Shown here: positions 1 to 6,455 of the stretch, piece after piece
How the letters are laid out: each line of letters begins with the position of its first letter
Position numbering within the stretch: the first letter of the stretch is position 1
Origin: a virus
Lineage: Duplodnaviria; Caudoviricetes
Strand: one strand, 5' to 3'
Length of the DNA stretch: 30,636 nt
IMG/VR virus record: IMGVR_UViG_3300032277_000051
Location: 1-30,636 of that record
Notes under the pieces: model-generated
The model's input: only the letters and a program-made list of their open reading frames with translations
The model's database searches: none
Told to the model about the DNA's origin: nothing
Translations under genes and position numbers: made by a program

Positions 1-192
1 CTCTGCCCATTTGTGACGATATTCTGATGCAACTGAATAATGTTTTGTTGATTGCTTTTGTAATTCAGATATCAACAGGATTGCCTCAATCAATGTCTGC
101 TGCTCATCCAAGTTCTCATTCTCACCTTTTGCTTTTATCCTCTCAAGAAGATGTTGCAACTTGACCTTTGTTGTAAGTATCTTGATATCCAT
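1..192 (-). CDS. Hypothetical protein, 3'-truncated by the window edge
   Basis: Manually translated open frame MDIKILTTKVKLQHLLERIKAKGENENLDEQQ... running off base 1; its ATG overlaps the TGA of the upstream gene (TGATG coupling at 190-194). Confidence 0.7.
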   Translation of the reverse strand, partial: MDIKILTTKVKLQHLLERIKAKGENENLDEQQTLIEAILLISELQKQSTKHYSVASEYRHKWAE

Positions 193-443
193 CAGAATGC
201 TTTTAACCCGGCTTTAATAAACATCTCTCTGTGAATAACTTTGTACTTCTGATTGATCAGTTTCTGATGCGTTACATTAAACCAATTGCCGAAATCATTA
301 AACAATCTCATCTTGTAATCAAACACCTCACATTGATTATCTGCATTCCAACTGATTGCTCTGTCAACAATCTCATAGGTCTTGCCCTGTATCAAGAAAA
401 TGCTATCCAGAGCAAAAGGTAATTTTAATCTAATATCGTTCAT
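192..443 (-). CDS. Hypothetical phage protein (83 aa)
   Basis: ORF co-oriented and tightly packed in the operon; no recognisable motif. Confidence 0.7.
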   Translation of the reverse strand: MNDIRLKLPFALDSIFLIQGKTYEIVDRAISWNADNQCEVFDYKMRLFNDFGNWFNVTHQKLINQKYKVIHREMFIKAGLKAF

Positions 444-452
444 GCTTTAAAT

Positions 453-1409
453 TTAATAAATCTTTTGGATAATCTTTTGAATGACCGCAACTGTTATTGA
501 GTTCCCTGCTTGTTTATAAAGTTGAGAATCTGAACAAACATCAGCAGCTTTAAAGAAAGCATCATCCGGAAAGTCTTGCAATCTCCAACACTCCAATGGT
601 GTTAACCTTCTGATTCTTTCTGATTCAATGAAATTATTGTATTCTCTTGAACCCTCTTTTGTATTTATGCAACTCGCAACTCCATCTCCTTTTGTTGGTT
701 TAAATTTATATCCAATATTATCACGTTCATTTACCTTGCTAAATCCCTCAATGATTTTATCAGATAAATAATATTTTGCATTCGGATTGTCTTGCAGCAT
801 ATCTCTCAATCTCAACTGCAACTGCTCTTTAATTGGAAAGCTGAACTCTCTGAAATCCTTGAACCCAACGATGAAGATTCTCTCTCTGTTCTGTGGTACT
901 CCGTAATCCTTTGTGTTGAGTACTTGAGCATAAACATGATAACCTAATCCATCATCAAACAAATCAATGCTTATCTGACCGTTTAATGTACCACCGCCAT
1001 TGGTTAGAATGTCTGTGATTGTTTGATATGTTCTGCCTTTATCGTGTGACAACAACCCTTTTACATTTTCTAAAATAAAGCATTTCGGTTGATTGATTCT
1101 AATGAACTCTGCAACATCAAAAAATAGTGTACCTCTTGCCTCATCAAATCCTTTGCGCTGACCTGCAATGCTGAATGACTGACAAGGAAACCCGGCAACA
1201 TACAAATCCAATTGCTCAACCTCTCTGTGGTCACGATTTGTAATATCATTATAGAATCTCTTTGGCTCATCGTGAATTACTGAATAAGATTGCCTTGCAT
1301 ACTTGTCAATCTCACAAGCAAATACTGATTCAAAATCAATTCCTAAATTTTTTAATGCCTGTTCTGGTGAACCAATTCCACTAAAATCTGTACCAACTTT
1401 TAATTTCAT
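453..1409 (-). CDS. DNA (cytosine-5)-methyltransferase
   Basis: C5-MTase motifs in order: DFSGIG (I), GFPCQSFS (IV, catalytic Cys), ENVKG (VI), PQNRERIF (VIII), RRLTPLEC..LQDFP (IX), YKQAGNS (X). Confidence 0.97.
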   Translation of the reverse strand: MKLKVGTDFSGIGSPEQALKNLGIDFESVFACEIDKYARQSYSVIHDEPKRFYNDITNRDHREVEQLDLYVAGFPCQSFSIAGQRKGFDEARGTLFFDVAEFIRINQPKCFILENVKGLLSHDKGRTYQTITDILTNGGGTLNGQISIDLFDDGLGYHVYAQVLNTKDYGVPQNRERIFIVGFKDFREFSFPIKEQLQLRLRDMLQDNPNAKYYLSDKIIEGFSKVNERDNIGYKFKPTKGDGVASCINTKEGSREYNNFIESERIRRLTPLECWRLQDFPDDAFFKAADVCSDSQLYKQAGNSITVAVIQKIIQKIY

Positions 1410-1426
1410 TTTGTTTTGTTTAATAA

Positions 1427-1478
1427 TTATAACACACTATAAAAACAACTACGCAATTTTTATACTACTGTTGGCAAC
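1427..1478. mobile_element. attC-like imperfect hairpin (short site)
   Basis: TATAAC-ACAC-TATAAAAA(1438-1445)-loop-TTTTTATA(1457-1464)-CTACT-GTTGGCAAC: AAC...GTT core ends enclosing an inner palindrome. Confidence 0.5.
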
Positions 1479-1483
1479 AATAA

Positions 1484-1810
1484 CTACAAATCTGCCAAAA
1501 CCTTTTTATTGTGTACTTGCTCACTTTGTTCTTTTAGATAATCTTCACAAAGTTTTTTTGCTCTTTCATTAAAATTCATTGTACCTGTTTTATAATGTTC
1601 AGAGCCACCACCATACATATATGATAATTTCATTGGGTTTATAGGATAGTTTTCTTCACCCCAAAAGCCTTCTGATATATCTATAAACAAAGTAGTATTC
1701 AACCAAAAGCAAAAAAACTTTTTCTGTAATCTTAAATTGTAGTGCTTAAAGGTTTTATCATATTTCACTTTCACCCTTAAATTATCTTGTGTTTTAATAA
1801 ATTTAGTCAT
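1484..1810 (-). CDS. Hypothetical cassette-borne protein (about 108 aa)
   Basis: AT-rich ORF; ATG at 1810 (MTKFIK...) preferred over the TTG at 1837, which lies inside the flanking repeat; bounded by 18-bp inverted repeats. Confidence 0.7.
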   Translation of the reverse strand: MTKFIKTQDNLRVKVKYDKTFKHYNLRLQKKFFCFWLNTTLFIDISEGFWGEENYPINPMKLSYMYGGGSEHYKTGTMNFNERAKKLCEDYLKEQSEQVHNKKVLADL

Positions 1811-1826
1811 TTCTAATATAGTTACA

Positions 1827-1926
1827 GTTGCCAACAATGTATAACAGTAATAAGCACAGGCAACGTTTGTGCTAAATTATGTGGTATAGTTATAGTGCTT
1901 ACTACGGTTATACAAGACCGTTAAAA
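1827..1926. mobile_element. attC-like imperfect hairpin (long site)
   Basis: GTTGCCAAC-AA-TGTATAACAGTAATAAGCAC(1838-1857)...GTGCTTACTACGGTTATACA(1895-1914)-AGACC-GTTAAAA; 18/20 inverted repeat between AAC and GTT cores. Confidence 0.65.
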
Positions 1927-2922
1927 AGGTGCATCATGCTCACCTCTGAATTTCTCTAACAATCCATTGTTCATAACCTGCATCTCTGTCTGGATTGGAA
2001 TCTGCTCATCATCTGTCAATGGCTCTGCATATTTCTTAACACCACCATTTAATATTTCAAAGTACTTGCCTTGCTTTATATCATAACTCAATGACGTTGT
2101 ACCTCTAATTCCTACAATAGCAGGTTTTGCTTTGTCAATTTTAATGTCAGAACTATGACTATCAAAATCTCTGTGAACAATCACAACAGACTTTGCATTG
2201 TTTCCCCATTCAGAACCACCTTTCAATTGATGCATATCTGGCATTATCACCTTTCCATCCTTGTCTTTCTTAGCAGTCTTTGGATGAATGATTGTGTGAA
2301 AATGTAATCCGGATGATTCAGCTAATTCATTCCTGTTACTTAGTGTTGCCTCAAGCCATTTATCTTCTCTTGAATATCCATCAGTATCGTGTTTCATGTA
2401 GTTCCAAGAATCAATAACTGCGCTGAATAACTCTAATTCATCCTTGTGTTTGACTGCATACTCCCAGAAATCTGTTGGAGTTACTTGTTTACTTCTGTTG
2501 TCTTGCTTTGGATTAAAGATTTTAAAGTAATGCAAGACCTCTGTCAGATGCCTATCAATGTCAGTTATCTCAATCCGATTCTCAATGACTTGCTTATTGC
2601 CTTCTGAATCATAATAGAACTCTTGAAATTGCTTTCCACTAAACTTGTGCAATAGTTTTGCAACAACCTCTGCATTACTACCTGCATCTGGCATATAGAT
2701 TAGATGCTTATGGTCATAGAACTCTGAACAGTTTTTCAATAACTCAAATAATAATTCTGTCTTACCACTACCGGGATAACCTGTCCAATCTGTACAACCA
2801 CCTTCTTTGATGTTGTAGTGAGATGCTAATCCTTTAAATCCACAATAGTAAACATTACCACCACCATTCTTGTAAAGGTGCAGCACCTCATCTCTGATAT
2901 CTGCTGCTTTAACTATCCCCAT
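1921..2922 (-). CDS. Replicative DNA helicase (SF4, DnaB/T7 gp4-like RecA fold)
   Basis: Walker A GYPGSGKT, Walker B AVIDSWN, IIHPK and LKGGSEW motifs; directly downstream of the initiator. Confidence 0.85.
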   Translation of the reverse strand: MGIVKAADIRDEVLHLYKNGGGNVYYCGFKGLASHYNIKEGGCTDWTGYPGSGKTELLFELLKNCSEFYDHKHLIYMPDAGSNAEVVAKLLHKFSGKQFQEFYYDSEGNKQVIENRIEITDIDRHLTEVLHYFKIFNPKQDNRSKQVTPTDFWEYAVKHKDELELFSAVIDSWNYMKHDTDGYSREDKWLEATLSNRNELAESSGLHFHTIIHPKTAKKDKDGKVIMPDMHQLKGGSEWGNNAKSVVIVHRDFDSHSSDIKIDKAKPAIVGIRGTTSLSYDIKQGKYFEILNGGVKKYAEPLTDDEQIPIQTEMQVMNNGLLEKFRGEHDAPF

Positions 2923-3590
2923 TTTCGTGCATCCTCTCTTAACTTCTTTCTGTGCGCCTCTTGTTTTTCATAGGCATCCATCTCATCTTCTTTCTTGTAT
3001 TGAATAGCATCCTTATCCCCAAACCATAACTCTGCACTATTTCTCCATACTTTCGATACTTCAAAACCTTTTTTATTTATCCAATTAAGAGAATTGTAAT
3101 AATAAAAGAACTTATCTGCGAACTCCTCAACATATCCTCTGGAATCAAAATACTGTCTGCACATTTCAATTGATGGTGAGTTGCTTTTATTAGTATCAGT
3201 TACAGTAACAGTATCAGTTACATTAACAGTATCAGTTACAGTAACAGTATCAGTTATTTTTGTTATAGCATTTTTAACATTGTTATCGTTTGTTATAACG
3301 GTGTTATCTTTTGTTATAGTCTTGTTATCCTTCCAACGTGACTGCATTCCCTTTTTACCTGCTTCACTTCGTTTCTGTTTCTGATGTTCCCAATCTTTCA
3401 AATCTCTTTTGAGTTGTCTTTTGATTGGCTCAAATGCAACAGATAGCAACACATCATCCACCTCTGGATTGTTGTCATTGGTGTAGTTAAGAATTAATTT
3501 GAATAGTTTACCTGCGACCTCATCCGGGAGTTGCTCAACCGTATGAATTAAATCACAGTAAAGTACAAATGACTTTTTATTTTCTGCCAT
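2913..3590 (-). CDS. Phage replication initiator (DUF6291-type N-terminus)
   Basis: N-terminus KKSFVLY...EQLPDEVAGKLFKLILNY, 'KRSEAGKKG' motif, central low-complexity T/V/D linker encoded by DNA repeats, position before the helicase. Confidence 0.8.
   Translation of the reverse strand: MAENKKSFVLYCDLIHTVEQLPDEVAGKLFKLILNYTNDNNPEVDDVLLSVAFEPIKRQLKRDLKDWEHQKQKRSEAGKKGMQSRWKDNKTITKDNTVITNDNNVKNAITKITDTVTVTDTVNVTDTVTVTDTNKSNSPSIEMCRQYFDSRGYVEEFADKFFYYYNSLNWINKKGFEVSKVWRNSAELWFGDKDAIQYKKEDEMDAYEKQEAHRKKLREDARKWG
3192..3328. repeat. Iteron-like repeats, candidate replication origin
   Basis: 18-bp AGTATCAGTTACA(G/T)TAAC at 3192, 3210 and 3228 plus a partial copy at 3246; then TGTTAT at 3261, 3281, 3291, 3302, 3312 and 3323. 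Confidence 0.75.
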
Positions 3591-3681
3591 TATTGTGTAT
3601 TTAAATATTGTGTATTAAAAAAAAGAATGTGGAAAGGAACACAATACAACCTATTACTGCGATGCCTCGCAAACCACATTA

Positions 3682-3712
3682 CAAAGATAATCATTCAATC
3701 AGATAACAACAA
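3682..3712 (-). promoter_or_regulatory. Bacteroidota sigmaA-type promoter for the initiator/helicase genes
   Basis: -7 element TATCTTTG (3689-3682) with TTG (3712-3710) 20 nt upstream. Confidence 0.65.
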
Positions 3713-4057
3713 TTTAACAGGCAACAAAATGCCTCTGCTTGTGTTATTATCACCACCGTTAACAATTCGCAATCCATCTGATTTGCATAACTGTTTTAAT
3801 TTAGATATATCAATCAACACTATCTGCTGATTAGACAACACAAAGCACCACCACTCTGCATGAGTTGTTGAGATGCCAGACAACTTGCCTCTGCTCTCAA
3901 ACTCAACAAATACATTCCCGGTTGCATTACCTTTGATTGCATGAAAATCAGTTTTAACTTCAATCTTACTCCCCTCTAAAATCAATATTTTAGCAATTAG
4001 ATTCTCGCCTTTGTTGCCTAATTTTAAGTCATGAGAGAAGTCATTACAGTACTTCAT
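3695..4057 (-). CDS. Putative PD-(D/E)XK-fold nuclease-like protein
   Basis: G..GE..IA helix, IEVKTD motif, and TGNVFVEFES.GK.SGISTT.AEWW segment typical of a small phage nuclease-like family. Confidence 0.55.
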   Translation of the reverse strand: MKYCNDFSHDLKLGNKGENLIAKILILEGSKIEVKTDFHAIKGNATGNVFVEFESRGKLSGISTTHAEWWCFVLSNQQIVLIDISKLKQLCKSDGLRIVNGGDNNTSRGILLPVKLLLSD

Positions 4058-4275
4058 GTCGCTGATTTATTTGATTGCCTATTAAACAACCTTCTAATTG
4101 CATAACTTCTGAAAATACTTGCTATCGTAAATACAATAGTAATGATTACATTTTGATTCAAATTAACTTCAATATCCAAAATTGGATAAATTATAATTTG
4201 AATAAAAAATGACATTGTAATGCCCACTATAGTATTAATAATGCTTTCTATTAAACTTTTTATTTTAGTCTGCAT
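4054..4275 (-). CDS. Small two-TM membrane protein (family often found next to phage methylases)
   Basis: MQTK.KSLIES..N..VG...N..IT..FT..S..RSY..RR.FN pattern, two hydrophobic helices; translationally coupled at both ends. Confidence 0.75.
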   Translation of the reverse strand: MQTKIKSLIESIINTIVGITMSFFIQIIIYPILDIEVNLNQNVIITIVFTIASIFRSYAIRRLFNRQSNKSAT

Positions 4276-6455
4276 CAGAATAGTTGTAGTACAGATTGCT
4301 TTTCATTAACACAATCTTTATGATTCTTTGCATTAATCTTGAAATAAGATTCTTTTAATTCAATTGATATGCTTTTTCTGTTCATTTTTAATGCTTGAAA
4401 ACCTTCTGAACCAACACCTCCAAATGGTGATAATACTGTTTCACCTTCATTAGAATATAAATGTATTATCCTTTCAATCGTATCTAATTGCAAAGGACAA
4501 ATATGCTTTTCATCATTTCCATCTCTGCCACTCCTGTATTGCAATGTGCGCTTATAATCCACATCCATCCATACAGGAGATGCGTATTTTTGCCATAAAT
4601 CAACAGGTAAATAATCTGCTTTGCTTTCATCTTCTGATTGATGAGTTATTGGAACTTCATTATCTCCTTCGTTTCTGAAAAATAAAATATAATCCGGAAT
4701 ACCAACTCTACTCATGCAGCTATCTTTTTTTATTGTTTTATGCAATAATCCTAATGCTTTAGTTCTCTGCATTTCAGTTACAGGATTCTTCCATATTGTA
4801 GTTTTCGCATGATAAATAAATCCCTCATTTGTAAACCAATCAATCAACATTCCAGAGAAGTCCCTCAATCCAATGAATCCCTCTTTGCCTTTTTGTATTG
4901 GTAAATCCATGCAATGAACTGCACATATTCTGCCTTTTTTCAAAGTTCTTTTTAGTTCTGGAATAAGATATTTAAAATGCTTTTCAAATTCTTTGTAATT
5001 AGACACATTGCCCATATCCTCTGCTTTATCAGAGTACACGTATAACTCTGCAAAAGGAGGAGAAAACAAAACTAAATCAGCACAATTATCTTTTAATCTT
5101 TTAGATTCTTGAACACAATCACCATTAATACAATGATAGTTTTCTGTTTTGATTTCTTTATTTTTTACAATTACATTTGACTTATTTAATTTATAATCTG
5201 TATTTGCTGAATAATTACTCATTTCTTTTATCATTGTTTTATGTTTTTGTTCTTTCTGTATTATTGTTTTCCTAACATTAATTTGGCTCTCTGGAACTAA
5301 TAAATGAACCTTCACCTTATTTAATTGTCCAAATCTATAACATCTCCTTACTGCTTGATAAAATGCTTCAAATTTAAAATCATAAGATGTAAATACCATA
5401 TTGCAACATTGCTGATAATTCATTCCAAATGATGCTATTGATGTTTTGGTTATTAAGTTTCTATATTCATTTTTTGCAAATCCATTTAAATGTTTAGACT
5501 TGTACTCTGGACTGTCTGAACCTTGAACATTTATGGAATCATCTAATACTTTTTTTAATTCATTCCCTTCATCATTTTTTAAAGTCCATATTATCCATTG
5601 CTCATTTGAGTTATTTACTAATTCAATTGTTTTATTAATCCTTGCTTTAAAACTCCTTTTTAAATCTTTGTGCAAATCAGTTGCGCTAACTGCAATATCA
5701 CCAAACAAGGACATTGTGTTGTTTTCAACAGGGATGATATGCTCAATGTATTCAATTTCTGGCAGGTTATATCCTTTAGAATCAAATCCTAATGTTTTTG
5801 GATTATCTAATGATATCGACCATGTACACACATATTTCCAAAAATCATCTTGAGCATGTTTTCTTAATCTCCATTTTGATGTTTCACCACCATCATGCAC
5901 AAAATACATCGCTAACATTTCTAAGTAACTCATTGCTCCTAAAAATTCGCTATGCTGCCCTAATTCCATATGGTCATTTGGAGATGGAGTTGCCGTACAC
6001 GCTAATTTATAAGGAGTTGATTCAAAAGTATTAATAATTAATCTGCTTAATTTGCCATCTCTGCCTTTTAGAATGCTGCTCTCATCAAGCACAACACCGG
6101 AATAAATACTGCAATCTATATTTTTCAATTGGTCATAGTTGGTTATATCGAAAGCATCTTGATTAATATTAAACTTTATAGATTCTAATTTAGTCTGATT
6201 AACAACTGCTAATGGAGCAAGAACTAATACCTTCTTTTTTGTTTTATTATATACTTGCTCACACCATGATAGCTGCATTAGTGTTTTGCCTAATCCACAA
6301 TCTGCAAATATTGCAAACCTGCCTTTTTTTAGTGCTATTTTGACTATATGTTTTTGAAAGTCAAAAAGACTACTGTTTAAATTATCTTCATCTATATCGA
6401 ATCCAGATGATATAAATTTCTTTTTCTTATTTTTTAAAAAATTATCGTATTTCAT
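4275..6455 (-). CDS. SNF2-like helicase fused to an amino (N4-C/N6-A) DNA methyltransferase
   Basis: N-half: DCGLGKT, LDESS, TATP, QAVRRCYRFGQ. C-half: FSPPF catalytic motif, HICPLQ and SPFGGVGS SAM-binding motif (beta-class order). Confidence 0.92.
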   Translation of the reverse strand: MKYDNFLKNKKKKFISSGFDIDEDNLNSSLFDFQKHIVKIALKKGRFAIFADCGLGKTLMQLSWCEQVYNKTKKKVLVLAPLAVVNQTKLESIKFNINQDAFDITNYDQLKNIDCSIYSGVVLDESSILKGRDGKLSRLIINTFESTPYKLACTATPSPNDHMELGQHSEFLGAMSYLEMLAMYFVHDGGETSKWRLRKHAQDDFWKYVCTWSISLDNPKTLGFDSKGYNLPEIEYIEHIIPVENNTMSLFGDIAVSATDLHKDLKRSFKARINKTIELVNNSNEQWIIWTLKNDEGNELKKVLDDSINVQGSDSPEYKSKHLNGFAKNEYRNLITKTSIASFGMNYQQCCNMVFTSYDFKFEAFYQAVRRCYRFGQLNKVKVHLLVPESQINVRKTIIQKEQKHKTMIKEMSNYSANTDYKLNKSNVIVKNKEIKTENYHCINGDCVQESKRLKDNCADLVLFSPPFAELYVYSDKAEDMGNVSNYKEFEKHFKYLIPELKRTLKKGRICAVHCMDLPIQKGKEGFIGLRDFSGMLIDWFTNEGFIYHAKTTIWKNPVTEMQRTKALGLLHKTIKKDSCMSRVGIPDYILFFRNEGDNEVPITHQSEDESKADYLPVDLWQKYASPVWMDVDYKRTLQYRSGRDGNDEKHICPLQLDTIERIIHLYSNEGETVLSPFGGVGSEGFQALKMNRKSISIELKESYFKINAKNHKDCVNEKQSVLQLF

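Follow-up and report, generated by a model that had tools for sequence, protein, structure and literature searches.

Inserted between a helicase gene and a methyltransferase gene of a tailed phage, a small mobile unit is described here that works like an integron cassette, while by its probable enzyme and by the orientation of its gene it stands outside the integron family. The DNA analysed, hereafter the window, is a virus record of 30.6 kb taken whole (IMG/VR record IMGVR_UViG_3300032277_000051, 30,636 nucleotides, tool-estimated completeness of 92%). At one GTT junction, a 450-bp cassette composed of one hairpin, one gene of 108 amino acids (aa) and an inverse core is present, absent or replaced by another cargo among close relatives of the phage; a non-IntI tyrosine recombinase of the host probably put it there as a circle, a reading to which a rough probability of 0.65 is given. 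The boundaries are precise, the slot is reused, the sites belong to a common family, and the gene is reversed relative to its site. The parts of the element are as follows:

1427-1472, plus strand: resident hairpin site, with a TTATAAC core (AAC at 1431-1433), a stem 1438-1445 / 1457-1464 and GTT at 1470-1472
1470-1486, plus strand: left cassette end, i.e., the GTTGGCA core and its extension, overlapping the stop codon of the cargo
1471-1920, plus strand: mobile unit of 450 bp, the ends of which slide within the common GTT (1470-1919 to 1473-1922)
1484-1810, minus strand: cargo gene, 108 aa, potentially extended by 9 residues from an in-frame TTG (1837)
1819-1835, plus strand: inverse core of the cassette, ending in TGCCAAC
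1833-1922, plus strand: cassette hairpin, attC-like, namely AAC, 2 unpaired nt, a 20-bp stem (1838-1857 / 1895-1914), 5 unpaired nt and GTT at 1920-1922

Along the plus strand, the order is thus TTATAAC (1427-1433), the short hairpin, GTTGGCA (1470-1476), the reversed gene, TGCCAAC (1829-1835), the long hairpin and GTTAAAA (1920-1926). An earlier reading made from the sequence only had described two attC-like hairpins with swapped cores around an AT-rich open reading frame (ORF), and these elements were all recovered: the frame lies between the two hairpins with a GC content of 26-30% versus about 35% around it, the inner cores form an inverted repeat (1469-1486 / 1819-1836, 18 nt, 89% complementary), the outer cores match in 6 of 7 positions, and the outer core of the slot includes the stop codon of the helicase gene (TAA, 1923-1921). 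More precisely, 1470-1486 is complementary to 1819-1835 over a perfect 9 bp, followed by 2 mismatches and 6 further pairs. The two hairpin sites are some 360 bp apart in a record holding no recombinase, and both are variants relative to attC.

That the unit is mobile is established by its relatives. A search with the helicase returned 12 loci; identity is 96-99% for 10, and 8 of these 10 extend to the stop codon. A metagenome scan for the short, resident hairpin returned four contigs (L096-L099), L099 being the window itself and L098 being cut. In the empty alleles L003 and L011, the helicase stop is joined directly to the short hairpin, L002 is consistent with an empty allele over its remaining 5 nt before it is cut, and L096 corresponds to the window allele in empty form: once the insert is removed, 142 of 147 junction nt agree, and the 5 that differ all lie on the helicase side. 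At the same junction, another hairpin and a gene of 59 aa precede the same short hairpin in L006, and L097 carries the end of a third cargo; all three cargos terminate there in TGCCAAC. No hairpin is found in L001, L005 and L009, and L004 is cut and uninformative at the junction. Kept in the window, L003, L006, L011, L096, L097 and L098, the resident hairpin occupies the position where attI would be and does not move when the cargo changes; the long hairpin, located upstream of the gene, moves together with it. Every allele change lies inside the GTT/AAC triplet, the resolution being this 3-nt triplet rather than the G^TT bond. Because of this series, the insert can be delimited to 450 bp with its ends in the common GTT, and the upstream hairpin can be designated as the mobile one; both the empty sites and the alternative cargos that the sequence-only reading had proposed to look for were found.

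Two other delimitations were considered and rejected. In the classical order, the gene would be followed by its own attC at 1431-1472, but the empty alleles retain that hairpin and lose the other one. Should the resident hairpin instead start a large multi-gene cassette, a downstream partner core would be expected; none is present in the window, and where TTATAAC recurs in L006 and L011, it is within coding genes.

The same series bears on the idea that no dedicated recombinase is at work now, old or foreign alleles simply being shuffled by homologous recombination and empty sites being generated by replication slippage at the hairpins. The flanks, 90-93% identical among relatives, would suffice for allele exchange, and other genes of the region do vary without hairpins; slippage loss of folded attC sites, as presented in the accessible part of a preprint (bioRxiv 2022.09.11.507474), could moreover account for L001, L005 and L009. 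Three cargo ends and three empty alleles, however, fall on one boundary of 3 nt, too short for homologous recombination, and the two ends of each cargo are mutually complementary over 9-10 bp, which makes this explanation quite improbable.

Excision would join the two cassette ends into one long hairpin and, once joined in silico, these ends fold at -24.2 kcal/mol versus -12.1 in place, a value of -24.2 being reached by 0 of 300 mononucleotide shuffles. The cassette hairpin is 90% paired according to an inverted-repeat search; in the predicted folds, both stems are free of bulges over their first 8 bp, the asymmetry being located in the spacer instead. In an alignment of 16 sites, 88.8% of the cells are paired and 4 pairs show two-sided changes, these sites having been pre-selected by pattern or pairing and not being independent. 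Under the stricter score, the succession of hairpin, complementary cores and hairpin is encountered at a single place in the window; one such chain is found in positions 1-6000, and dinucleotide shuffles gave one chain in 1 of 20. It is scarcely credible that the hairpins are terminators or regulatory RNA structures showing the core pattern by chance. Folded in place they are weak, modestly better than shuffles (z -1.3 to -2.2), which favours such a function to that extent; the terminator role that had been raised at the outset as an objection nonetheless finds 0 terminator-like sites (GC-rich stem and T run) in 1200-2200, an Rfam scan of the window at E 1 had no match and one of 1380-1960 had four chance matches far under the gathering scores, and the exact empty and alternative alleles already contradict a chance pattern.

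The site is not restricted to this phage group. A 16-nt motif from the long hairpin matched 46 viral loci, 13 of which were judged by eye to be real sites, the 33 others, chance-like and within genes, being excluded. One phage locus (L026) holds a near copy of the window hairpin ahead of another gene, and two phages (L034 and L051) have one cassette in common between different neighbours, their homology running from the AAC of the upstream hairpin to 2 nt past the downstream AAC; these limits confirm the cassette unit independently. Altogether, 17 chains were recorded in 15 phage loci, the cores pairing for exactly 10 bp in 12 of them; where an ORF fills at least 60% of the cassette (12 chains), it is invariably flipped, i.e., opposite to the polarity of the site (12/12). 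Unrelated cargos in the window (1470-1486 and 1810-1835) and in L019, L026, L034, L051, L056 and L058 lie in a near-identical end frame, the stop codon being within the inverse-core extension, which hints that new cassettes might arise by gene replacement inside an old frame. Four further loci matching the motif (L020, L028, L031 and L045) hold cassettes that are nearly empty, measuring 29-30 bp between the outer limits of GTTGGCA and TGCCAAC and geneless between the cores; in some of them, the gene seems to be located before the GTT, inside the hairpin loop.

Sites of the same family occur on bacterial chromosomes. The exact site pattern matched 13 genomes, namely 11 Bacteroidota and 2 of Treponema type, and a looser pattern matched 63 of the 101 Olleya-family genomes sampled, with 0 in the reversed control. 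With a chromosomal site of Flavobacteriaceae (L070/L091), the ends of the cassette hairpin are identical over 20/20 and 19/20 nt, and the site family suggests that the phage host is a member of the Bacteroidota. In two 20-kb stretches (G001, with its recombinase at L087:7134-8321, and G002), arrays of sites adjoin a tyrosine recombinase; the other four stretches contain sites and no chain at the same setting. The search for repeat arrays and linked recombinases in Flavobacteriaceae-type genomes, as had been suggested, was thereby successful, the arrays lying beside enzymes of 388-453 aa. In the host arrays L087 and L088, 9 of 11 chains are gene-filled and all nine genes have the classical orientation (9/9); among shorter host loci, 5 rows are classical, including one duplicate, and 5 are flipped. 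The first cassette of G001 begins at a GTT just behind the recombinase, which places the crossover of host and phage cassettes on the same side of the hairpin and leaves the gene alone as turned. Like that of host arrays, the window crossover takes place on the hairpin side bearing the long spacer, within the GTT at 1470-1472 / 1920-1922; the cargo is opposite to host cassette genes and aligned with the phage operon, being read from the side opposite the resident hairpin.

Homologues of the array-linked recombinase are present in 61 of the 101 Olleya-family genomes, i.e., in 46 of the 63 that have sites and in 15 of the 38 that have none (46/17/15/23, Fisher p 0.0015, the genomes not being independent and kinship being ignored), and in 19 of the 20 genomes holding five or more sites. 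The four enzymes scanned score 193-226 bits, below the TIGR02249 cut-off of 265, and one of them, aligned with IntI4 (2a3v), spans IntI4 residues 189-241 with 9 residues only, some 44 residues being missing at the I2 insertion. The I2 helix is described in the consulted part of PMC7790495 as needed by IntI to dock extrahelical bases. The tyrosine recombinase proposed by the sequence-only reading has a counterpart linked to host arrays; IntI it is not. Three observations stand beside these host loci: a short hairpin devoid of an AAC core stands ahead of the first GTT behind the G005 recombinase (L092:10380-10520) and is a possible docking site; the first residues of host-array cassette genes in L087:9510-15603 suggest restriction-modification genes, some cassettes having two genes; and an Algoriphagus locus (L071) holds a hairpin almost identical to those of arrays on two short contigs (L065 and L066), considered below.

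In comparison with integron cassettes, as moved by IntI1 or the Vibrio IntIA/IntI4, the element has in common a single-gene unit bounded by GTT...AAC, swapped cores, a crossover in GTT, a hairpin that circularisation would complete and host arrays beside a tyrosine recombinase. Whereas a classical cassette gene runs from the GTT core towards attC, here the gene is reversed and the hairpin precedes it; the integron-style claim therefore stood for the cores and the junction and failed for the order. The core consensus of attC is RYYYAAC/GTTRRRY. Cores of the phage site family fit it only partially and complement over 9-10 bp instead of 7, and the window site further differs from attC by 2 versus 5 unpaired bases beside the R box, by an unbulged first stem and by a linked host enzyme devoid of the I2 insertion; unlike an integron, the phage record has no intI in cis. 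An R' form of the core consensus is quoted in the part of PMC9892861 available.

In that study (Qi et al., 2023; PMC9892861), as far as its accessible part goes, 17 phage attC-site clusters without integron-integrases (CALINs) are listed, including that of Polaribacter phage P12002L, which resembles the present case in having attC-like sites in a virulent Bacteroidota phage without integrase, near methyltransferase genes. The site P12002L_attC1 (L076, 30009-30055) has the shape of the window site, with neighbouring methyltransferase genes on the opposite strand. An ordinary CALIN, i.e., classical attC sites handled by the true IntI of some host, would fit the invariant AAC/GTT, the swapped cores and the GTT crossover, and HattCI called the P12002L site an attC (PMC9892861, in the part seen); the reversed gene, the absence of a bulge from the first 8 bp of the stem and the failure to find TIGR02249 above cut-off in any of the five site-bearing host genomes (0/5) nevertheless render it very improbable, all the more as P12002L_attC1 was the one of six tested sites to fail with IntI1 (same source). 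The sections of PMC9892861 at hand treat the P12002L sites as ordinary attC, propose arrival by off-target or illegitimate recombination and, unlike the window case, include neither an empty/filled series nor a reversed-polarity rule nor a non-IntI enzyme. No report of a non-IntI cassette system in Bacteroidota or of reversed phage cassettes was found in literature searches that left most subscription journals, as well as preprint supplements, outside their coverage.

As for the source of the enzyme, the absence of a recombinase from the phage, claimed at first sight, was confirmed: at an E threshold of 0.1, PF00589 went unmatched in the 92%-complete record. The five relatives (23-71% complete) likewise gave 0/5, and of 10 further phage records with cassettes, 9, including two complete ones, gave no match, the single match being a 413-aa frame in a provirus, some 20 kb from the motif. 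Gain through a tyrosine recombinase acting in trans, as proposed by the sequence-only reading, agrees with this absence and with the linkage of host arrays to such an enzyme; the action of the host enzyme on the phage is the inferred part. A host enzyme in trans would be the simplest explanation, the main rival being a helper phage. With the same cassette logic, a Xer-like enzyme encoded by a co-infecting phage, a prophage or the unsequenced part of the genome would serve a phage-only pool of flipped cassettes. Such an origin would suit the uniform flipped polarity in phages and a cargo family found in 0 of 301 host-class genomes by a scan without positive control; it is unlikely in view of the PF00589 results and of hairpin ends near-identical to a host site.

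In the mechanism that can be proposed with a host enzyme, the recombinase of a host array would insert a circular intermediate. By analogy with attC bottom strands, and with P12002L_attC1, for which the supplement of PMC9892861 gives a bottom-strand form, the folded single strand recombined would be the coding strand of the phage. Docking would take place at the resident hairpin or, alternatively, at the GTTAA of the helicase stop, and the cargo would be expressed from the phage operon. Cassette entry at a GWT site outside an integron, called attG insertion in the part seen of bioRxiv 2022.09.11.507474, offers a likeness, the helicase-end GTTAA fitting GWT, and the slot may have been founded by an attG-like insertion at this GTTAA; according to the same part, attG is nonetheless a hairpin-free double-stranded target of IntI, whereas the window slot keeps its resident hairpin in all empty alleles and is reused.

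Several points weigh against an insertion by the host enzyme. Since the latter lacks the I2 helix, single-strand recombination by it is unexplained. Gain is favoured over loss by interpretation, the data not fixing the direction. The filled allele is carried by contigs from 3 of 4 sequencing runs; circles, joints and empty alleles did not show up in any of the four, contigs alone being unable to show absence. Exchange in the phage group also affects other variable genes (methyltransferases and, in L011, a gene of 300 aa) that show neither a partner core nor a detected cassette chain; the record lacks about 8% of the phage genome, and RNAalifold returned no consensus structure for the 16 aligned sites. 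Lastly, the flip is not exclusive to viruses, as five flipped cassettes lie on two short contigs of metagenome-assembled genomes, L065 (Bacteroidales) and L066 (Treponemataceae), which could represent either true exceptions or phage DNA that was misbinned.

Regarding the cargo gene, the description as an orphan did not survive, 16 close homologues besides itself and 44 cluster representatives having been found. No family was returned by Pfam and PHROG scans, and three viral scans for homologue contexts gave no other genomic place for the same cargo. An antiparallel beta-sheet with a long C-terminal helix is predicted by a second model (predicted local distance difference test, pLDDT, of 94), the first model being poor (pLDDT 56). 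Foldseek gave no significant fold match (best E 0.23 in PDB and 0.04 among viral structures), and none was accepted, nor were an AcrIF structure (VIA best Z 5.6, root-mean-square deviation 3.5, 67 residues), Ocr (E 0.53) or Atlas matches, all under 0.8. By analogy with the methyltransferases of other cassettes of the site family, a role in phage-host conflict would be most likely. TAnnTTTG, a promoter motif of Bacteroidota, is absent from 1380-1960, and a sigma-70 scan gave 10 sites versus 5.3 expected.

Nearly all genes of the window are on the minus strand according to the ORF list, and those flanking the slot are:

1921-2922, minus strand: replicative helicase-like gene, 333 aa (PHROG 5482, E 7.8e-56; primase/helicase PHROGs 18375 and 239)
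453-1409, minus strand: C5 cytosine methyltransferase gene, downstream of the resident hairpin (PF00145, E 6.9e-73)

The methyltransferase gene varies among relatives, being absent from L003, L009 and L011, and has no bounding TTATAAC partner core downstream within the window. Further strain-specific insertions lie downstream in L006 (3125-4005), L011 (709-1611) and L097 (104-1155), comprising a second methyltransferase-like gene, the 300-aa gene and an altered methyltransferase region; no cassette chain was detected around that of L006. Elsewhere in the window, 4275-6455 encodes a fused SNF2-like helicase and N6/N4 methyltransferase of 726 aa, and an 18-bp tandem repeat of 3.6 copies (3192-3256) encodes a VTVTDT-like linker of a DUF6291 replication protein. 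The sequencing runs holding the window best are marine, seawater and microbial-mat metagenomes, and distant blastn searches of an annotated phage collection with 1420-1930 gave nothing beyond short chance matches.

The locus thus provides matched empty, filled and alternative alleles together with a phage site near-identical at its ends to a host site. If the array-linked enzyme moves the cassette, it would represent a second solution to recombination at hairpin sites, and lytic phages without integrase could gain or swap genes at a fixed slot. Almost no complete integrons are reported in Bacteroidetes by IntegronFinder 2.0, in the part of PMC9024848 consulted, which contrasts with sites in 63 of 101 genomes of a single family and a linked non-IntI recombinase. 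It can be put forward, tentatively and at less than even odds, that Bacteroidota possess a second, common integron-like system without I2 helix, the enzyme of which is borrowed by phages that keep a separate pool by carrying their cassettes back to front. If so, a host cassette, e.g., one with a defence gene, would be antisense and silent in a phage slot, a phage cassette would likewise be silent in a host array, and one enzyme would serve both sides of the arms race.
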